A stretch of 64,000 nt of DNA from a virus, in IMG/VR virus record IMGVR_UViG_3300010396_000037, one strand, 5' to 3'. The notes beneath the pieces were generated by a model. It was not told where the DNA came from. It saw nothing but the letters and a program-made list of their open reading frames with translations, and did not search any database. Below, piece after piece: positions 1-38,081 of this stretch (within the stretch, counting starts at the first letter, position 1; each line of letters starts with the position of its first letter). The position numbers and the translations under genes were made by a program.

Positions 1-1428
1 CCATTAAAGAAAGACGTGGGCGAGAAGAACCAATCTATTGTAGGTGGTTATGTCAAAAACCCAAATCCTGGTATGTATCATTGGGTTGTAACCTTTGACG
101 CGTCATCCCTGTACCCTTCTTTGATTCGACAATTGAATATCAGTCCAGAGACACTTCAGGGTGTAATGTATTCTGTCGACAGGTCTGACTTAGATGGTAG
201 TGGTTGGGAAGAAGCGAGGGCGTTGGCTCAAGAAAACAATTGGACGATTGCTTCTAATGGCGCAGCTTTTGATGTTGAAAGAAGTGGATGTCTACCAGAA
301 TTGATGTACATCTATTATCAGAAAAAGAATGATGCGTCAAAACTTCAAATTGAAGCAGAAAAAGAGTTACAGCTGAAACCTGGTGATAAGGAATTAGAAC
401 TTCGCATTCAGAATCTGAAGTCAAAGATATTCGCAACCAAGGTGCTACTCAATTCTTGTTTCGGTGCAACATCTAATCCTTACTTCCAGTTCTCTGACGA
501 TAGAATCGCGGAAGCAATTACAACTTCAGGTCAGACGTTGATTCAGACCGCTGCAAAAAGAGTCAATGCACAATTTTGCAAGATCATGAAAAGCAATCGT
601 GATTACATTATTGCTTCTGATACAGACTCAATTATTGTGGATTGTTCTTCAATTGTTGAAGCTGCCAAATGGAATGGTTCTTTGAATCCAACTGCGTCTG
701 TTGAAGAAACAACCAAGTTCCTCAATAGATTGTGCGAAGCTAAACTGAACCCATTGCTTGATGAAATCATGGATGAGATAGTTAGCAAGACTCATGCTCG
801 TGAAAAAGCAGTGTTCATGGTGCGTGAAGCAATTTGCGACACAGTAGTTTGGGTGGCTGCTAAGAATTACATGATGCGCATTTGGAACAACAAAGGCGTC
901 ACATACAAGAATCCTAAATACAAGATCATGGGTCTTGAAGCTGTTCGTTCTACCACTCCAACTGCTTGTAGAAAAGCTTTGAAGCATTCAATTGAATTGA
1001 TACTAGATGAAAATCAACAGGGATTGTTAGATTACATAGAGGAATTCAAGAAAGTATTTTGGAACTCTGATTATTCTGAAGTCAGTAAGAACATTAGCGT
1101 GAGATTTGGTTCACCTGTTGTTACTCAACAGATCAGAGCAGCAACAGTGTATAACAATGCCATCAAAGAAAGAAATTTGGAAAATCTCTATTCTTTGATA
1201 TCACATGGTAGTAAAATACGCCTCTTGCATCTAAAGAAACCAAATCCATTGGGGTCTGATATTATTGGATTCCCAGAAGGCAAGCTTCCAAAGGAATTTG
1301 GAATTGACAAGTATATTGACAAAGAACAAATGTTTGAAAAGACATTCATGGTTCCGCTTGAAAAGATGGTTAAAGCAGGTGGAATGAGTATTAAGCAAGA
1401 AGATTCATTGTCTGCATTTTTTGTTTGA
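1..1428 (+). CDS. 43: Family B DNA polymerase (gp43), C-terminal part, truncated by the window edge
   Basis: Motifs FDASSLYPS, KVLLNSCFG, SDTDS, KIMGLEAVRSTTP. The frame is open back to base 1. Ends SLSAFFV, a clamp-binding-like peptide. Confidence 0.95.
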   Translation, partial: PLKKDVGEKNQSIVGGYVKNPNPGMYHWVVTFDASSLYPSLIRQLNISPETLQGVMYSVDRSDLDGSGWEEARALAQENNWTIASNGAAFDVERSGCLPELMYIYYQKKNDASKLQIEAEKELQLKPGDKELELRIQNLKSKIFATKVLLNSCFGATSNPYFQFSDDRIAEAITTSGQTLIQTAAKRVNAQFCKIMKSNRDYIIASDTDSIIVDCSSIVEAAKWNGSLNPTASVEETTKFLNRLCEAKLNPLLDEIMDEIVSKTHAREKAVFMVREAICDTVVWVAAKNYMMRIWNNKGVTYKNPKYKIMGLEAVRSTTPTACRKALKHSIELILDENQQGLLDYIEEFKKVFWNSDYSEVSKNISVRFGSPVVTQQIRAATVYNNAIKERNLENLYSLISHGSKIRLLHLKKPNPLGSDIIGFPEGKLPKEFGIDKYIDKEQMFEKTFMVPLEKMVKAGGMSIKQEDSLSAFFV

Positions 1429-1437
1429 GGATTAGAT

Positions 1438-2484
1438 ATGGCAAATGTTGAATTACTGAAAAGATTAAAAGCAGCATCAACTATTGATGAAACATCAATG
1501 CTGGAAGATTCAGTGGTGTTTCAGAAAAAGGATTTGGTTCAGACTCCTGTTCCAATGTTGAATGTTGCATTATCAGGCATGCTGGATGGCGGATTTGCTT
1601 CTGGCTTGACGGTATTTGCGGGTGAGAGCAAAAGGTTCAAGACTATGTATGTCTTGATTTGTGCTGCTGCTTATCTGAAGAAATATCCTGATTCTGTTCT
1701 TTTGTTTTATGATTCTGAATTTGGTACTCCACAATCATATTTCAGTTCACTTGGTATTCCTCTGGATAGAGTGATTCATACACCTATTACAACTGTTGAA
1801 CAATTGCGTTCAGATATAGCCAATCAGTTGAATGCTATCAAGAAAGGAGACAGAATTTTCATTGCAGTTGATTCTGTAGGAAATCTTGCGTCTGCAAAAG
1901 AAGTCAATGATGCCTTAGACGAGAAGTCCGTAGCAGATATGACACGCGCCAAACAATTGAAGTCTCTCTTTCGTATTATCACTCCACAGTTGACATTGAA
2001 AGATGTTCCATGTTTTGTTGTTAATCATACTTACAAAACCATGGAGCTTTATTCCAAAGATGTTGTATCTGGCGGAACAGGTGTTTATTATAGCTCTGAT
2101 AACATCTTTATTATTGGTCGACAACAAGAAAAAGAAAAAGATAAATTGTCTGGTTTTAATTTCATTATTAATGTAGAGAAGTCACGTTTTGTAAAGGAAA
2201 AGAGTAAAATACCGATTAGTGTTTCTTTTGAGCATGGTATGCAAAAGAATTCTGGATTGCTTGAATTGGCTCTTGAGTTGAATTATGTAACTTCGCCAAA
2301 ATTGGGACAATATGCTTTCGTGAATCGCAAGACTGGTGAAGTAGAAGATAAGACATTCAAAAAGACCGAAACCACTAAACCAGAATTTTCCAAACGTTTG
2401 TTGGATGATGTTGATTTTCAAGAAGCTGTTAAGGATAAGTTTCAGATTGCTAGGACAGCTCTGTTTAAGAATGATGAGGAATAA
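1438..2484 (+). CDS. uvsX: RecA-like recombinase UvsX
   Basis: AGESKRFKT P-loop, FYDSEFG, DSVGNLAS, DMTRAK, VVSGGTG; lies between gp43 and gp41. Confidence 0.95.
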   Translation: MANVELLKRLKAASTIDETSMLEDSVVFQKKDLVQTPVPMLNVALSGMLDGGFASGLTVFAGESKRFKTMYVLICAAAYLKKYPDSVLLFYDSEFGTPQSYFSSLGIPLDRVIHTPITTVEQLRSDIANQLNAIKKGDRIFIAVDSVGNLASAKEVNDALDEKSVADMTRAKQLKSLFRIITPQLTLKDVPCFVVNHTYKTMELYSKDVVSGGTGVYYSSDNIFIIGRQQEKEKDKLSGFNFIINVEKSRFVKEKSKIPISVSFEHGMQKNSGLLELALELNYVTSPKLGQYAFVNRKTGEVEDKTFKKTETTKPEFSKRLLDDVDFQEAVKDKFQIARTALFKNDEE

Positions 2485-2486
2485 GA

Positions 2487-3902
2487 ATGCCACAACCAAT
2501 CGAAGTTGAAATTTTAAACGGTTTGGTGTTTGATTCGGAGTTTGCTAAGCTTGCTTTGCCGCACTTTGAAGATGAATATTTTTCTGATGATGGTACAAGA
2601 ACAGTTTTGAGCCTTGCTCGTGATTATATTGGTAAGTACGGAAGTCAACCAACGATTGATGCTTTAGCAATTGATCTGCAATCTGTAAAAGAGTTGACAC
2701 AGGACCAGTTTGAAGGTGCTAAGAATGTTATTCAAGAATTGAAACCGAGTGAAACTGACTACAAATGGCTGGTAGATAAAGCTGAAGGATTCTGCCAAGA
2801 TCGTGCTTTGTATCTTGGTATCATGCAAGCCATTCACATTGTTGATGGTAAGGAAACCAAGCATGGTATCTCTAAAGGAGCAATTCCTGACTTACTGCAA
2901 AAGGCATTGGCTGTCAATTTTGATCGTTCCATAGGTCATGATTACTTTTCTCAAGCTGATGCTCGTTTTGCATTCTATCATAATGATGAAGAACACATAC
3001 CATTTGATCTGGAGATGCTCAACCGCATCACCAAAGGTGGTTTGTACCGCAAGACTTTAAATGTTTTCACCGCTGCACCAGGAGTTGGTAAAACTCTGAC
3101 AATGTGCCATATGGCTGCATCATATGTTGCATCTGGTTTGAAAGTTCTATACATCACAATGGAAATGTCTGAAGAAAGGATTGCTCAGAGAATTGACGCG
3201 AACTTACTTGATGTATCCTTGAATGAGATAGAAAATATTTCTAGAGCGGATTTTGATTCCAGAGTGCAAAGAGCACGTTCCAGAATGACGGGTGATATAG
3301 TCATCAAAGAATTCCCGACTGGTGGTGGAAACGTCAATCATTTCAGACATTTACTTTCTGAATTGGACCAGAAGAAGAGATTCAAACCGGATGTTATCTT
3401 CGTTGACTATATGAATATTTGTTCATCAGCCCGTTACCGTAATGGCGATGGAGCAAATAGTTATTCTGTCGTGAAAGCTATTGCTGAAGAGTTGAGAGGC
3501 ATGGCGGTTGAATTCAATGTTCCCGTTGTTACAGCAACACAGTTTAACCGTGAAGGAGCGGGTTCGTCTGATCCTGAAATGACGAATACATCAGACAGCT
3601 TCGGAACACCCATGACGGCTGACTTGCAATTGGCAATCTACTCTACTCCAGACCTGGATGAACAGGGTAAGTTGGTTATCAAGCAATTGAAGAATCGCTA
3701 CAATGATAAGACAGAATACAAGAAGTTTCTGTTAAGAGTGGATAAGAGCAAAATGCGTTTGATGGATGATGATGTGCTGGAAGGATACTCAACTTCTTTG
3801 TCTGATAAGGAAAAGAAGAACATTGAAGAAATGTCTAATGCTCGCAAACCAACACATGATGAAAAATCATTTGGTGGGTTTGATTTTGGAGAGGATGAAT
3901 AA
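2487..3902 (+). CDS. 41: Replicative DnaB-like helicase gp41
   Basis: APGVGKT Walker A, YITMEMSEERIAQRIDANL, VDYMNI, AEELRG, TATQFNR, KQLKNRY. Confidence 0.95.
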   Translation: MPQPIEVEILNGLVFDSEFAKLALPHFEDEYFSDDGTRTVLSLARDYIGKYGSQPTIDALAIDLQSVKELTQDQFEGAKNVIQELKPSETDYKWLVDKAEGFCQDRALYLGIMQAIHIVDGKETKHGISKGAIPDLLQKALAVNFDRSIGHDYFSQADARFAFYHNDEEHIPFDLEMLNRITKGGLYRKTLNVFTAAPGVGKTLTMCHMAASYVASGLKVLYITMEMSEERIAQRIDANLLDVSLNEIENISRADFDSRVQRARSRMTGDIVIKEFPTGGGNVNHFRHLLSELDQKKRFKPDVIFVDYMNICSSARYRNGDGANSYSVVKAIAEELRGMAVEFNVPVVTATQFNREGAGSSDPEMTNTSDSFGTPMTADLQLAIYSTPDLDEQGKLVIKQLKNRYNDKTEYKKFLLRVDKSKMRLMDDDVLEGYSTSLSDKEKKNIEEMSNARKPTHDEKSFGGFDFGEDE

Positions 3903-3903
3903 T

Positions 3904-5085
3904 ATGCGCGTATGTGTACTCTATTGGCCTATCAGTGGTGTGGGTGGTATCTCAACTTTCATGAAGCATATGAAAGCAGTCGCAGATGATCGTGGAGATA
4001 CATTCCATGTTCTCTGTTCGCCAAATCAGAAAGGTAAAGAAGTTGGGTTATTGCCAGAAGCAACTGAAGTGGCTGGTGGTTCATCTAACATCTTGATTGA
4101 TGGATATGTGCCGCATCATCCATCTAACTTCGAGAAGTCCGCTGATTTCATCGCCAAGAATTATGACGTGGTTCTAACAGCCCATTTATGTCCAAGACCT
4201 AACAAGTCTTATGGTGAAGAACCCGTTTTCTTAAATCTTCTGAATGAATTGCATGCAAAAAATGTTAGAATGATTGGATTCATTCATGATGGGTATTGGG
4301 ACACTTACAAGGAGTTCGGCATTCCAACTCTTGAGTTAATGCAGAAAACAATTATTGCGCAGCCAACTTATGCCAAACCAATTCTAACAGAAAAACACTA
4401 TCCAATTGAACCAACTTATCTGGCCATTCATCCACGAATTCTAGAAGCCAATAAACTTGAAGGCGATCAAAGAAATCGTAAGCGCGTTGTCTGGTTGCCA
4501 CAATGGAAGCGCATCAAAGGTACACACCTGATGCTACAAGGACTTCCTGAGGCAGAACAGATAGGATATGATGTACATCTTTATGGATGCGGCATTGATT
4601 ATTACAACGCATGTTTGGAAGATAGCTGGAAGAAGATGATTGGTAAAGATCTATTCCGTCCAGATTGTTCTGGCCAAGGAACAGCAACTTATTTCGGTAC
4701 AAGACCATACAACGAAGTTTCTGTTGCTTTACAACAAGCAACTTTCTCACTAGATTTCCAAGGTCACAGTGCAAAATATAAGACTGCATATGAAACTGGT
4801 TCTTACAATTATACTCATCTTGAAAGTCTATATTGGGGATGCGTACCTGTTGTGCATAAAAATTTCTTGAAGAATGACATACCAGATGATTTGGTTCTTG
4901 CTCTTGACCACCCTGAAATGTGGGCAAACGCCATCAAGAAGTATTGTAGCTTTAATTACCCAACCGAAAAAGCCAGGGAGTATGTATTGGAACATCATTC
5001 TGCTACAAGGCATTATGACCAGACATTTTCAATGGAATGTAAAGAGATTAAGGAAGAAGGTGGTCTTTCGGCATTCTTTGTATGA
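3904..5085 (+). CDS. GT-B fold glycosyltransferase, putative DNA-modifying
   Basis: N-terminal beta strand plus GVGGISTF; KRIKG and YTHLESLYWGCVPVV (GT4-like nucleotide-sugar-binding segment). The start at 3904 follows GAGGA. Ends GLSAFFV. Confidence 0.75.
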   Translation: MRVCVLYWPISGVGGISTFMKHMKAVADDRGDTFHVLCSPNQKGKEVGLLPEATEVAGGSSNILIDGYVPHHPSNFEKSADFIAKNYDVVLTAHLCPRPNKSYGEEPVFLNLLNELHAKNVRMIGFIHDGYWDTYKEFGIPTLELMQKTIIAQPTYAKPILTEKHYPIEPTYLAIHPRILEANKLEGDQRNRKRVVWLPQWKRIKGTHLMLQGLPEAEQIGYDVHLYGCGIDYYNACLEDSWKKMIGKDLFRPDCSGQGTATYFGTRPYNEVSVALQQATFSLDFQGHSAKYKTAYETGSYNYTHLESLYWGCVPVVHKNFLKNDIPDDLVLALDHPEMWANAIKKYCSFNYPTEKAREYVLEHHSATRHYDQTFSMECKEIKEEGGLSAFFV

Positions 5086-5462
5086 ATCGTTGGACTTACA
5101 ATGGTTTTGACTATGATGAATCTAAAGGAGCATTCGGATTCATCTATTTGATTACAAATCTTGAAACAGGCAAAATGTACGTCGGTAAGAAAAGTTTCAA
5201 GAGATGGGATGGAGAAGAGAGCGATTGGAGAACATATCATGGCTCATGTAAGAGTCTGAATGAAGACCTGCGTGAAAAGAACTCTTTGAAGAGAGAGATT
5301 CTCTACATTTGTGAAACTGAAGAAGAAATGGATAAACTGGAAATTGAAGAGCAATTAAAGCGTGATGTTGTGAATGATCCTAGATATTACAATCGCAGAG
5401 TTGGGGATAGATTTCTAGGCATGAAACGTGTGAATGGTAGGCTACAGAAGAAAACAGCATGA
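5082..5462 (+). CDS. Small GIY-YIG (Seg-like) nuclease, catalytic domain only
   Basis: FGFIYLITN..GKMYVGKK, YHGS, REIL, E..Q, YYN. Confidence 0.75.
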   Translation: MNRWTYNGFDYDESKGAFGFIYLITNLETGKMYVGKKSFKRWDGEESDWRTYHGSCKSLNEDLREKNSLKREILYICETEEEMDKLEIEEQLKRDVVNDPRYYNRRVGDRFLGMKRVNGRLQKKTA

Positions 5463-5524
5463 AACGTGTGGTAGATAACACTAAACCAGTGAAGATTGTT
5501 ATAGAGCCTCATGCAGACAATTAG
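5459..5524 (+). pseudogene. Orphaned original N-terminus of the PIG-L deacetylase (MKRVVDNTKPVKIVIEPHADN*)
   Basis: Translated by hand. The ATG overlaps the upstream stop (ATGA), and the ORF encodes a canonical IVIEPHAD motif before stopping at the start of the endonuclease cassette. Confidence 0.7.
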
Positions 5525-5563
5525 AGAAAGTATAAATATCTTCAATTGAATAGAGGATATTTT

Positions 5564-6322
5564 ATGAAGGAGTGGATATATAAAGGCGAAGAATTAGCAC
5601 AAGTTCCTGGCAATGCATTTGGATTTATCTATTGCATAACTAATGTTAATTCTGGGCAGAAATATATAGGCCGAAAACAATTTGTCACCCAAAAAGGAGT
5701 AGAAACAAATTGGAAAACTTATTTTGGGTCTAGTATGCATTTGTCTAAAGATGTAGAAAAATTAGGCAAAAAATGTTTTCTTAGGGAAATTATTAGCGTT
5801 CACTCATCTAATTCAGAATTGTGTGAAGCGGAAGTGACGGAACAAGAGAATAGAAATGTTCTGTATGAAATTTTACCCAATGGCGAAAGAGCATATTACA
5901 ACAGATGTATAAAAGGCAAAGAATTTTATATCAATATGTTGGAGAAATGGCAAGACCCAGAGTACAGGAAGCATCAAGAAGAAATGCATAAAGAAACATG
6001 GAAAAATCCAGACTATAGGAAGAGGATGTCTGATGCTCATAAAGGACAAGTCCAATGGAATTTAGGATTAAAAGGAACGCAACCTGTTACAGAAGAATTA
6101 AGAGCAAAGAGAAGAAAGTTATCCAGACAACTGTGGAATGATCCAGTTTATAGAGAAAATTGTTTGAATGCCTGTAAATCAGAGGATCGAAGAAAGAAGT
6201 TGTCTGATGCCCATAAGGGTAAAAAATGGATAACTAATGGCAGCAGAAGCGTTCTGTTTAGAGGAGAAAATCTCCCAGAAGGTTACAGATATGGCAGGAA
6301 ATATTCCCCAAATAGTTTGTGA
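5564..6322 (+). mobile_element. Free-standing GIY-YIG homing endonuclease with NUMOD3-like DNA-binding repeats
   Basis: FGFIYCITN..GQKYIGRK, YFGS; repeats RKRMSDAHKG and RKKLSDAHKG; KWITNG tail; AT-rich; own TATAAATA promoter at 5531 and GAGGA RBS. Confidence 0.85.
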
Positions 6323-6857
6323 AACCCATGCCGATGATGCCTTTTTGAGTATGGGGCAGCATTTAGAAGATTGGCATAAACAAAGGATTCCTACAGCTAT
6401 TGTTACAGTTTTCAGTGGTACTAGAAAGAGAGCTGTAGATGCACAGAAATACGCAGATGCTGTAGGAGCAAAATGGGAAGGTTGGGGGTTTGTAGAAGGG
6501 GAACCATTACCCAATGATCTTTCTATGTATTTGCAAAATTCAAAAATATCTTTATTTCCTTTCTCGGAAAGTGTTGAATGGTATATAAATCTTGCTCTAA
6601 CACACCCGGAACATAAGAGGGTAAGAGAGTTGCTGGAACCTGCGGCAGCTGGAATGTATGTTGATCAGCCTTATGCTATCACACAAAAGAATGCTCCTAT
6701 TGTAACAGAACTCATGAAAGGAAGAACAGTTCTGAGTTACAAACATCCTGGGAAGCGTAAGTATCGCCACATTCCTCTGTTCAAAGACCAATCAAAGTTC
6801 TTTTATTTCAACAATGAAGAGAAACTTCTTCAGACCTTTGAAATGATCGTCCAATAA
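6291..6857 (+). CDS. PIG-L/LmbE-family de-N-acetylase
   Basis: HADDAFLSMG (HxDD), VTVFSG, R..D...ADAVGA, THPEH (HxxH), Y.DQPYA. The ATG at 6291 lies inside the endonuclease 3' end. Confidence 0.75.
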   Translation: MAGNIPQIVCETHADDAFLSMGQHLEDWHKQRIPTAIVTVFSGTRKRAVDAQKYADAVGAKWEGWGFVEGEPLPNDLSMYLQNSKISLFPFSESVEWYINLALTHPEHKRVRELLEPAAAGMYVDQPYAITQKNAPIVTELMKGRTVLSYKHPGKRKYRHIPLFKDQSKFFYFNNEEKLLQTFEMIVQ

Positions 6858-6885
6858 ATAAAATAGTTATTTACATAGAGACAGA

Positions 6886-7440
6886 ATGATGAAGACTTTC
6901 ACTGAATTCTTGGTAGAATCTTCCTTCACCCACGATAGGAAAGAATATGAAAGTCATCCTTTCCTGAAATCTAAAGGACTAACCAGATTGCGCAATGGCG
7001 CAAAAATTGTCGACAGTGATGATGGATCAATCTATCATGATCATTCTTCTAAAAATCCTCATGTAGTATATGCGTTCAAACAAGATGGCGAACATCATGT
7101 GCATGTTTATCCTGGAGATCCTAGATCAACAGAACCCACACATGCTGGAGTCGGCAAAACTCCAACCGAAGCAATGAATAATTTGAAACCTTTCAAACAG
7201 TATGCCAAGAAATATTTAGATGAGTCTGTTCTGAAGGAATTCCATCCAACGCCTGCTGGAAAGGAAGTTCCTGGGGCCGAGAGTGATCAAGGCGCTGAGA
7301 AATATGTCAAACAAGTGAATGGCAAGTGGGCACTGGTTTCACGTCATACTGGTCGTCCATTGAAATATTTTGATAGCAAACCTTCTCGTGAAGAGGCTGG
7401 CAAAGCTCTCCGCACGGTTGAATACTTCAAACACTCTTAA
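6886..7440 (+). CDS. Putative internal head protein with a T4 IP-like capsid-targeting N-terminus
   Basis: MKTFTEFLVE resembles the T4 internal-protein leader MKTYQEFIAE; internal LDE/LKE sites; His-rich; AATAAATA upstream. Confidence 0.6.
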   Translation: MMKTFTEFLVESSFTHDRKEYESHPFLKSKGLTRLRNGAKIVDSDDGSIYHDHSSKNPHVVYAFKQDGEHHVHVYPGDPRSTEPTHAGVGKTPTEAMNNLKPFKQYAKKYLDESVLKEFHPTPAGKEVPGAESDQGAEKYVKQVNGKWALVSRHTGRPLKYFDSKPSREEAGKALRTVEYFKHS

Positions 7441-7489
7441 TTTTGAATCAAACTGGCTTACACTAAACTTTTCCTAGTTGGAGGAGTTT

Positions 7490-7711
7490 ATGAGTCTGCC
7501 CAAAATTGAATTATGGAATCAGTCTCCAACTGAATTCAGTTATACAACTGAAAATAATGTAAGATATATGATAATCCCACTCCAACATACTGGAAAGCGG
7601 AGTTTAAGGATTTTTGATCCGCATGTATTGGGATGGAAATCTTTTGGACCATATGATACTACTAAGCAAGCTTATCAGGCAGCTTGCGAGTATGACAACA
7701 CACATGCCTGA
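7490..7711 (+). CDS. Hypothetical protein
   Basis: ORF with GGAGG RBS, downstream of a TTTTGA-N12-TACACT promoter. Confidence 0.55.
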   Translation: MSLPKIELWNQSPTEFSYTTENNVRYMIIPLQHTGKRSLRIFDPHVLGWKSFGPYDTTKQAYQAACEYDNTHA

Positions 7712-8560: not shown

Positions 8561-8664
8561 TTTTGTGGGTTTCTAATTCAATAAAATTAATGACTTAGGG
8601 ACGCTGTAAACTCTAACCCACACTACCCTACATTTCGTTCCTAAATCAACTGAATTTGACGTTT

Positions 8665-8925
8665 ATGACAGTCTATGTAGACAATATGCAGGCACAGTTC
8701 AAAAGAATGACAATGTGTCATATGTTGGCTGATACTACAGAAGAACTGTTAGAAATGGCTGATAAGATTGGAGTTGCTAGGAAGTGGTTACAGAAAGCTG
8801 GCACTTTGCATGAGCATTTTGATATTTGTATATCTAAGCGTAAACTAGCTGTTCAAGCAGGAGCCAGAGAAATAACATTGAGGCAGACTGGCGAACTGAT
8901 TCATAAAAAACGTGAACAGTTGTGA
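8665..8925 (+). CDS. DUF4031-family protein
   Basis: VYVD, CHMLADT.EEL..MA..IG...W.Q, HFDI..SKR.LAV.AGA. Confidence 0.75.
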   Translation: MTVYVDNMQAQFKRMTMCHMLADTTEELLEMADKIGVARKWLQKAGTLHEHFDICISKRKLAVQAGAREITLRQTGELIHKKREQL

Positions 8926-36698: not shown

Positions 36699-36779
36699 TT
36701 GGTAGAAAAAGTAGAAATATAAATAAAGCCCGTAAACAACAATAACTTAGCAAGTTGCAAAACCAGGAGAGATTCTAAC

Positions 36780-38081
36780 ATGTTTACAACTGATACCCTT
36801 TTGAATAAGTGGAAACCAATTCTGGAGCATGCAGAACTCCCAGAAATTAAAGACAAGCATCGTCGTGAAGTAACTTGCCAAGTGCTTGAGAATACATGGG
36901 CAACGATGCAGGACAGCAATTCCTTCGCTGCTCCACAGCGTTTGGATGAGTTGGATGCTCCATCAACCAACATCAGTGGCGGCATTCAGGTTTATGATCC
37001 TGTGTTGATCACTTTGATCCGTCGCGCATTGCCTAACCTTATCGCTTATGATATTGCTGGTGTCCAGCCTTTGACTGGTCCTACTGGTTTGATCTTTGCG
37101 TTGGTTCCAAGCTACACCAACCAGACTGGTACAAATGCGTTCTACAATGAACCAAATACCCAGTTCTCTACTGTTGTTGCTGGTAACAGCACAATGGGCC
37201 AGGCTCATACTGGTACACTTCCATCCAGCAATACTTCTTTGTACAACTATGCACAGGCCATGGCTACTGCACAGGCTGAAGCATTGGGTACAACTGGTAA
37301 TACAGACTTTGCACAGATGGCTGTGTCCGTTGCTAAGGTTTCAGCAACTGCTGGTTCACGCGCATTGAAAGCTGAATACACAATGGAAATGGCGCAGGAC
37401 TTGAAGGCAATTCATGGTCTTGATGCTGAGACTGAATTGGCTAACATCCTTGCTGTTGAGTTGTTGGCTGAAATCAACCGTGAAATCATCCGTACCGTTA
37501 ACATCTCTGCTTTGCAGGGTGCTGCTACTTGTGTAACTCCAGGCACCTTCGACATGGACGTTGACTCAAACGGTCGTTGGTCAGTTGAAAAGTTCAAAGG
37601 TTTGCATTACCAGTTGGAACGTGAATGCAACGCGATCGCTAAGGCAACTCGTCGTGGCCGTGGTAACATCGTAATCTGCTCAAGTGACGTTGCTTCCGCT
37701 TTGCAGATGGCTGGTGTTCTAAGCTACACTCCCGCTTTGGCTGGTAATGATTTGCAGGTAGATGATACCGGACCTACATTCGTAGGATTGTTGAACAACC
37801 ACATCCGTGTTTACATTGACCCATATACAACTGGTGACTATGTAACCACTGGATATAAGGGTGTCAACACAATGGATGCAGGTTTGTTCTACTGCCCATA
37901 TGTACCTTTGCAGATGGTGCGTGGTGTGAATGAGTCAAGCTTGCAACCAAAGATTGGCTTCAAGACCCGTTATGCGGTTGTTGCAAACCCATTCGCTCCT
38001 GGTGCTCCAGTTGGTACAGGTGCGTTGAGTCCTTTGAGCAACGTGTTCTATCGCTCATTCGCTGTTGCAAATATCATGTAA
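36780..38081 (+). CDS. 23: Major capsid protein gp23
   Basis: DPVLI.LIRRA.PNLIAYDI.GVQP..GPTGLIFA, SRALKAEY..E.AQDLKAIHGLDAE.EL, DAGLFYCPYVPLQ, QPKIGFKTRY. Confidence 0.97.
   Translation: MFTTDTLLNKWKPILEHAELPEIKDKHRREVTCQVLENTWATMQDSNSFAAPQRLDELDAPSTNISGGIQVYDPVLITLIRRALPNLIAYDIAGVQPLTGPTGLIFALVPSYTNQTGTNAFYNEPNTQFSTVVAGNSTMGQAHTGTLPSSNTSLYNYAQAMATAQAEALGTTGNTDFAQMAVSVAKVSATAGSRALKAEYTMEMAQDLKAIHGLDAETELANILAVELLAEINREIIRTVNISALQGAATCVTPGTFDMDVDSNGRWSVEKFKGLHYQLERECNAIAKATRRGRGNIVICSSDVASALQMAGVLSYTPALAGNDLQVDDTGPTFVGLLNNHIRVYIDPYTTGDYVTTGYKGVNTMDAGLFYCPYVPLQMVRGVNESSLQPKIGFKTRYAVVANPFAPGAPVGTGALSPLSNVFYRSFAVANIM

Follow-up and report, generated by a model that had tools for sequence, protein, structure and literature searches.

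The window analyzed here is a 64,000-nt stretch of DNA from an uncultured, T4-like phage from soil (IMG/VR record IMGVR_UViG_3300010396_000037), and all coordinates below are in its numbering. It contains a locus in which a gene encoding a PIG-L deacetylase is preceded by a homing endonuclease gene, which is itself preceded by a second, truncated copy of the beginning of the deacetylase gene (Table 1). The truncated copy, a 21-codon open reading frame (ORF) that we refer to as the stub, follows a 126-aa ORF whose TGA overlaps the stub ATG (ATGA). A 39-nt spacer holding a TATAAATA box and the sequence GAGGA separates the stub from the endonuclease gene, and the deacetylase ORF (6291–6857, 188 aa) begins MAGNIPQIVCETHADDAFLSMG and carries a second motif, ...IVCETHADD. 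A preliminary description of this DNA had noted a 21-codon ORF coupled to the previous gene and ending ...IVIEPHAD-N-stop, an AT-rich GIY-YIG/NUMOD3 gene sharing 32 nt with a start at 6291 in another frame, and a strand-plus-HxD motif on both sides of that gene with its codons changed. Each of these features is present, the endonuclease domains being recognized by Pfam as well, and six of the eight motif codons compared differ between the two copies.

Table 1. Features of the stub–endonuclease–deacetylase locus
Feature	Position	Strand	Description
126-aa ORF, GIY-YIG (SegE type) domain only	5082..5462	+	Native left flank; Pfam PF19835, 2.3e-23
21-codon ORF (stub)	5459..5524	+	Reads MKRVVDNTKPVKIVIEPHADN-stop; 20 native codons, then Asn and TAG from foreign DNA
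Left junction	5517..5521		Homology to endonuclease-free relatives ends; region of the second Asp codon of HADD
TATAAATA box	5531..5538	+	Candidate T4-type late promoter for the endonuclease gene; exact match
10-bp hairpin	5534..5562	+	3′ arm holds GAGGA (5553–5557); 5′ arm overlaps the TATAAATA box
Endonuclease gene, 252 aa	5564..6322	+	SegE-type GIY-YIG domain and two NUMOD3 repeats; free-standing
Dual-coded overlap, 32 nt	6291..6322	+	Endonuclease 3′ end and deacetylase start in different frames; read from the sequence
Foreign (probably co-converted) deacetylase 5′ two-thirds	6291..6650	+	Codons 1 to ~121; HADD codons at 6327–6338
Right-hand crossover zone	6645..6655		Start of the conserved YVDQPYAITQKN (YVDQPY) block; identity step
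Native deacetylase 3′ third	6650..6857	+	Codons ~122–188; 91% nucleotide and 97% amino acid identity to L001/P0006

The motif duplication is not due to chance. A regular expression for the N-terminal strand followed by E[PT]HxD matched twice in the six frames of the window, both times at this locus, and no more than once in any of 58 other related loci, the sole other double match (L010) being a copy of the same phage. Nor is the arrangement an assembly artefact: the identical gene order is found on nine contigs from at least three samples (JGI 3300010373, SRR6185437, and SRR6185512), and L010, the DNA readable from those contigs, matches the window at 100% identity over 6210 nt. The metagenome of the window phage also contains another related T4-like phage (L019, Ga0134128_10000210; deacetylase 64% identical, 126-aa GIY-YIG ORF 83% identical), and it is between relatives occurring together in this way that homing happens. 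Such a relative might also give rise to an assembly chimera of two co-occurring phages, but that explanation is contradicted by the repeated gene order and by the sequence of L010, and neither the endonuclease nor the segment described below as foreign matches L019 or any other sampled phage; we regard it as extremely improbable. No additional endonuclease or deacetylase paralogs were detected within the 64-kb window.

Relatives without the Endonuclease Gene Carry an Intact Deacetylase Gene

Homologs of the deacetylase, 82 in number and 152 to 202 aa in length, were found in metagenomic and phage contigs. One of them is encoded by L001, a contig of 135 kb that shares its gene order with the window at ~83% nucleotide identity and has no endonuclease gene at this position. 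The order DNA polymerase, UvsX, helicase, 393-aa glycosyltransferase-like gene, 126-aa GIY-YIG-only ORF, deacetylase, and downstream genes is common to both. The L001 deacetylase (P0006) is intact, 195 aa long, starts MKYVIDNTKPVKIVIEPHADDAFLSMG, and is coupled by ATGA to the 126-aa ORF; eleven alleles of 195 aa have the same N-terminus. Relatives thus carry the uninterrupted ...KIVIEPHADDAFLSMG... allele that the preliminary description had envisaged. The stub agrees with the start of the L001 gene at 18 of 20 amino acids and 49 of 60 nucleotides (82%), in line with the ~83% of the flanks. Because L001, without the endonuclease gene, has an intact gene with that start, the stub is a relic of the native deacetylase 5′ end. 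Eight of the 11 nucleotide differences between them, counted by eye on the alignment, are synonymous, which means that over most of the time separating the two phages from their common ancestor the stub was evolving as a coding sequence. It remains translationally coupled to the 126-aa ORF.

The endonuclease gene and adjoining DNA occupy a sharply bounded interval. In BLASTN alignments, window positions 1–5517 match L001 544–6059 at 83% identity, and homology returns at 6655 (L001 6386); therefore, 1137 nt of the window replace 326 nt of L001. Flank identity is 77 to 94% per 100 nt up to the left junction, where GAC AAT TAG in the window is aligned with GAT GAT GCT in L001. The breakpoint relative to the intact allele lies in or just after the HAD|D codons, in agreement with the position proposed in the preliminary description.

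The 126-aa ORF is not the mobile gene. It is 81 to 87% identical at the amino acid level and in the same position in L001, L004, L006, and L019, and because it is kept at one position in syntenic relatives, it is not sporadic in the manner of a homing endonuclease gene. Its product has a GIY-YIG domain without a DNA-binding domain and might represent a nuclease that has been domesticated. A 14-nt sequence (GCATGAAACGTGTG) is repeated exactly and in direct orientation at 5419–5432 and 5457–5470 (spacing 38 nt), the first copy lying toward the 3′ end of the 126-aa ORF and the second across the start of the stub. We do not regard it as a meaningful element: the corresponding L001 positions are not repeated, and it is probably incidental.

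The Endonuclease Gene Is an Intact, Free-Standing, Sporadic Insertion

The GIY-YIG domain of the 252-aa protein is complete (Pfam PF19835, SegE_GIY-YIG; 8.4e-28, profile positions 1–123 of 123), and NUMOD3 is found in two stretches (PF07460; 25.8 bits against a cutoff of 20.4), with DNA repeats at 6017–6045 and 6191–6219. The PHROGs homing endonuclease families also match the protein. The gene has a G+C content of 32 to 35%, against 38 to 43% in the flanks, and it is missing at this position in L001, L004, L006, L007, and L019, a presence/absence polymorphism among syntenic genomes. It is an intact, sporadic, free-standing insertion, as the preliminary description of a mobile endonuclease had it. 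No homolog of more than 30% identity was found among 5.8 billion proteins, and full-length identity to annotated phage homing endonucleases in GenBank does not exceed 30%. The GIY-YIG domain is 36% identical to that of the 126-aa ORF.

T4-like phages carry group I introns that encode GIY-YIG endonucleases (PMC2988022), and an intron spliced out between ~5518 and ~6336 would join MKRVVDNTKPVKIVIEPHAD to DAFLS... in frame. No such intron can be detected in the sequence, however. Over positions 4500–7500, no Rfam intron or other RNA family was detected at E ≤ 1; noncoding DNA amounts to 39 nt upstream of the endonuclease ORF and none downstream, leaving no room for a ribozyme core; and inspection by eye found no uridine ending a 5′ exon at positions that would also give an intron-terminal guanosine. 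Splicing would also leave unexplained why a second N-terminus is present in full, with an ATG and a Shine-Dalgarno sequence of its own. Splicing is accordingly a most improbable explanation, and the earlier characterization of the element as nonsplicing holds, nothing at the locus pointing to splicing.

The Deacetylase Gene Downstream Is a Mosaic of Two Alleles

When compared with L001, the 5′ part of the deacetylase gene is evenly diverged, with 54% nucleotide identity (203/379), whereas the 3′ part is 91% identical (193/212). At the protein level, the window deacetylase (P0001) and P0006 are 53% identical over residues 1–121 and 97% identical over residues 122–188 (65/67). In bins of 30 nt, identity is 11 to 21 of 30 over 6306–6653 (10 of 30 in a gapped first bin) and 25 to 30 of 30 from 6654 on, the step from 14 to 27 of 30 falling at ~6654. 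Because of this sharp step and the positions of the boundaries, we conclude that the working gene is a chimera in which codons 1–121 derive from a foreign allele and codons 122–188 are native. The foreign tract, from 6291 to ~6650, adjoins the endonuclease gene directly.

The extent of this tract bears on the earlier proposal that the endonuclease gene brought with it a short recoded N-terminus. The endonuclease gene does overlap, at its 3′ end, a substitute 5′ end of the deacetylase gene, as proposed; this substitute is not a short recoded N-terminus, however, but 121 codons (~360 nt) of a different natural allele. A discrete cassette (~5519–6335) inserted precisely into the HxDD codons, the rest of the downstream gene being original, would account for the breakpoint at the HADD codons, for the new start with its 32-nt overlap, and for the identity between the native and new copies of the 12 residues that follow HADD (AFLSMGQHLEDW). 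Those 12 codons nonetheless differ at 9 of 36 nucleotide positions, residues 17–121 are only ~50% identical to the native type, and nucleotide identity of ~54% persists for another 300 nt before ending abruptly at ~6650. The position of the right-hand boundary contradicts the cassette, which we consider unlikely. Since the foreign tract is evenly diverged and returns abruptly to 91% identity at ~6650, the codon differences in the motif are ordinary allelic divergence acquired through co-conversion.

A chimera could also be mimicked by duplication of the 5′ part of the gene in situ at insertion, followed by rapid divergence of the downstream copy. In favor of this history, the two copies lie in the same orientation on either side of the endonuclease gene, and members of the family evolve fast in their N-terminal region. 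Such a history would, however, require ~46% nucleotide divergence in codons 1–121 while codons 122–188 stayed at 91% identity and the stub at 82%, and the new copy shares two rare substitutions with another lineage, that of P0013, which is encoded on the T4-like contig L007. T12 and N100, each in place of Pro, occur in 3 and 2 of 64 homologs, respectively, at positions otherwise at least 90% conserved. In phylogenetic trees the N-terminal part groups with P0013 (SH-aLRT 82 to 84), and the C-terminal part groups with P0006 on near-zero branches. Duplication in situ is thus improbable.

The Chimeric Protein Is Predicted to Be a Functional PIG-L Deacetylase

Among 64 homologs, the HxDD motif after the N-terminal strand (H13-A-D15-D16) is invariant, as is H108 of a second His motif (H105-P-E-H108), in which H105 is at least 90% conserved. 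P0001 alone missed the gathering cutoff of Pfam PF02585 (18.5 bits against 28.2), but many of its homologs have a precomputed match to that family, and a family profile of 28 rows (27 family members and the 21-aa stub) matches the GlcNAc deacetylases Dbv21 and Orf2 at 3e-9. An NCBIfam search gave nothing further. The chimera modeled by AlphaFold2 (pLDDT 97, pTM 0.92) has the PIG-L/LmbE-type Rossmann-like fold, and its best Foldseek matches were Dbv21 and Orf2, then BshB and MshB (best structures 3dfi, 2x9l, 6iiy, 4xm1, 6ull, and 1q7t, all at a match probability of 1.00). It keeps 42 of the 44 residues that are at least 90% conserved. On the strength of these residues and the predicted fold, the chimeric deacetylase looks functional, as the preliminary description had supposed.

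Genes of the deacetylase family are consistently accompanied by DNA-modification genes. A GT-B-like glycosyltransferase neighbors the deacetylase in the window (3904–6857) and in L001, and the two genes lie in the replication operon. The neighbor in L007 (4189–5555) is a TAGT-family glycosyltransferase, and those in L008 (3905–9467) are a 5-hmdU DNA kinase (HMUDK_hel), Nmad5, a thymidylate-synthase-like gene, and a YfbR-like gene. This context suggests that the PIG-L enzyme de-N-acetylates DNA-linked GlcNAc in amino-sugar DNA hypermodification. Relatives of the deacetylase are found in DNA-hypermodification clusters, and a possible effect of the endonuclease is therefore the shuffling of alleles in a DNA-modification pathway.

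Candidate Expression Signals

The hairpin upstream of the endonuclease gene pairs 5534–5543 with 5553–5562 (−7.9 kcal/mol, z −1.9; 10 of 200 shuffled sequences equally stable) and would bury the endonuclease Shine-Dalgarno sequence. The same hairpin/late-promoter layout is shared by I-TevI, segB, and Aeh1 mobE, and in the T4-type layout read-through transcripts are translationally silent, and late transcripts starting inside the hairpin are translated (PMC2988022). The endonuclease gene in the window may likewise be controlled by a late promoter and hairpin. Another TATAAATA copy (36718–36725) lies 54 nt upstream of a 433-aa gene at 36780 whose product has a T4 gp23-like N-terminus (LLNKWKP..LPEI); its position before a gp23-like capsid gene agrees with the presence of T4-type late promoters, despite the rarity of the motif across the window. 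We also looked in the 45-nt leader (5519–5563) for an I-TevI-like operator resembling the intact L001 target, and rejected this candidate at a score of 8 (shuffles: mean 7.3, maximum 13).

With its coupling to the 126-aa ORF lost, the deacetylase gene must now be translated from 6291. The ATG there is preceded, at a distance of 8 nt and within the endonuclease ORF, by GAAGG, and predicted structure around the start (6255–6330) is not better than in shuffled sequences (z −1.2).

A Probable Footprint of Homing between Diverged Phages

The locus is most probably the footprint left in a T4-like phage by the homing of a free-standing SegE-type GIY-YIG/NUMOD3 endonuclease gene. The source of the foreign segment is a divergent allele from an unsampled phage. 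For deacetylase residues 1–121 alone, no database protein exceeded 58% identity over at least 100 residues, one partial match of 66 residues reaching 61%. GenBank phages gave no matches to positions 3900–7500 by megablast or to the deacetylase by TBLASTN, and in scans of IMG/VR and JGI metagenomes, none of 49 loci had an endonuclease gene beside the deacetylase. Partial matches in L055, L057, and L058 were set aside as degraded fragments in a high-GC, nonphage context. As these searches turned up neither a donor nor a close relative of the endonuclease, we infer the arrangement of the donor, and we likewise infer the order of the repair events and the position of the break.

In the donor phage, the endonuclease gene would have lain directly upstream of a divergent PIG-L deacetylase allele, overlapping its start by 32 nt. 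The recipient would have carried a native 195-aa allele of the MK..IDNTKPVKIVIEPHADD type, and this allele would have been cut through both strands in or close to the HADD codons. The right end would have been resected through ~320 nt of poor match to the donor until homology was first met in the conserved YVDQPY block; it would then have invaded the donor, and synthesis would have copied deacetylase codons 1–121, the endonuclease gene, and a leader of ~45 nt. The left end, without a homologous partner in the donor, would have been joined illegitimately after almost no resection, the outcome being a native stub of 20 codons that ends two codons into foreign DNA. The chimera would be translated without splicing, starting at its own ATG 32 nt before the end of the endonuclease gene. 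The missing partner for the left end fits the variability of the gene upstream of the deacetylase among relatives, which is the 126-aa ORF in L001, a DUF4031 gene in L004, and the TAGT glycosyltransferase in L007.

Several observations weigh against a homing footprint of this form. The failure to find a donor or a close endonuclease relative in the searches described above is one. The N-terminal two-thirds of the deacetylase family evolve faster than the C-terminal third in all pairs; this explains part of the contrast between the two parts of the window gene, but not 53% against 97%, since other pairs with C-terminal parts 82 to 88% identical have N-terminal parts 66 to 77% identical. In the approximately unbiased (AU) test, a tree placing the N-terminal part beside P0006 and P0007 was not rejected (p = 0.40); therefore, the mosaic rests on the divergence step and the retained stub and not on conflict between topologies. 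The place of cleavage may also differ from that of the illegitimate junction. Of the expression signals, the hairpin is modestly better than shuffled sequences, and the TATAAATA promoter called in the preliminary description is present before the endonuclease gene as an exact match, but the motif has three copies in the window against 2.0 expected by chance, so that its frequency gives no support to the call.

Of the 195 codons of the gene, the six that hold the left junction are the most conserved, which is suggestive of a break there without proving it, and the end of the stub predicts a cleavage site at or near the HADD codons. It is plausible that the foreign allele would be immune to cleavage. 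More tentatively, and with somewhat less than an even chance of being right, the end of the stub may be the true cleavage site, the endonuclease targeting the HADD-coding DNA of a phage DNA-modification enzyme. The element might then spread between phages with unrelated upstream genes, obligatorily carrying a putatively cleavage-resistant 5′ gene module whose start codon lies inside the endonuclease ORF. If so, it would be the phage mirror-image counterpart of the mobile ORFs of fungal mitochondria that carry gene ends.

Relation to Known Mobile Endonucleases

The mechanism proposed here (break repair, co-conversion, and an illegitimate one-sided join) is already known, and the locus is a well-preserved natural example of it, in which the intact ancestral-type allele, the recipient relic, the foreign tract, and the two junctions are all legible with a precision of a few bases. 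Experiments in T4 have demonstrated one-sided homing that leaves illegitimate, microhomology-type junctions, and the pairing of one homologous with one illegitimate junction resembles T4 intron homing with limited exon homology (PMC2988022). The locus also resembles those of the T4 seg and mob endonucleases (SegB, SegE, SegF, SegG, and MobE; PMC2988022) in the SegE-type GIY-YIG domain with its NUMOD3 region, in the sporadic position between conserved genes of a T4-like replication cluster, in the donor tract brought in on the side of the target gene by co-conversion, and in the candidate late promoter and hairpin over the ribosome-binding site. It differs from them in that known seg proteins are at most 30% identical to the window endonuclease and in that the gene affected here, encoding a PIG-L deacetylase, is no known seg target. 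A translatable 20-codon duplicate of a gene's 5′ end is a further difference, and in a limited literature survey we found none described for natural T4-like genomes.

Aeromonas phage Aeh1 mobE, which lies in nrdA, is likewise a free-standing endonuclease gene inside a conserved enzyme gene of a T4-like phage, with no intron and with a hairpin over its ribosome-binding site (PMC2988022). Aeh1 nrdA, however, is split into two complementary polypeptides with no duplication, whereas the window has a complete downstream gene and an upstream piece that is redundant.

A closer parallel for the duplication is provided by fungal mitochondrial mobile ORFs, in which a foreign C-terminus together with an endonuclease ORF displaces the native C-terminus (Allomyces macrogynus atp6; Glomus atp6, atp9, cox2, and nad3), the displaced native copy being nearly identical to that of sister species (PMC3630166). 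As in those genes, the endonuclease ORF lies between two copies of one end of the host gene; the native copy is closer to relatives (stub, 82% nucleotide identity) than is the working copy (54%); and the working copy is divergent and horizontally acquired, forming a hybrid gene, which in the fungi is expressed. In the window, however, it is the 5′ end that is replaced, not a 3′ end fused in frame to an upstream core; the foreign piece lies downstream of the endonuclease gene, with its own start at 6291 inside the endonuclease ORF; and the host is a phage rather than a mitochondrion, with a foreign tract of 121 of 188 codons. The locus, read as a homing footprint, shows that homing between diverged phages can create a chimeric enzyme of predicted function, with 121 foreign and 67 native residues.

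Other Variable Segments near the Locus

A DUF4031 gene lies 1.8 kb downstream of the locus in the window (8656–8925). L004 (5748–6008) and L006 have such a gene between the 126-aa GIY-YIG ORF and the deacetylase, and none was called in L001; it is a second mobile or shuffled small gene of this neighborhood. Within the gene that follows the deacetylase (6886–7440), identity to L001 falls to 54 to 63% over ~200 nt (6949–7148) between segments of 79 to 90%, and this stretch is another local replacement or a hypervariable patch.

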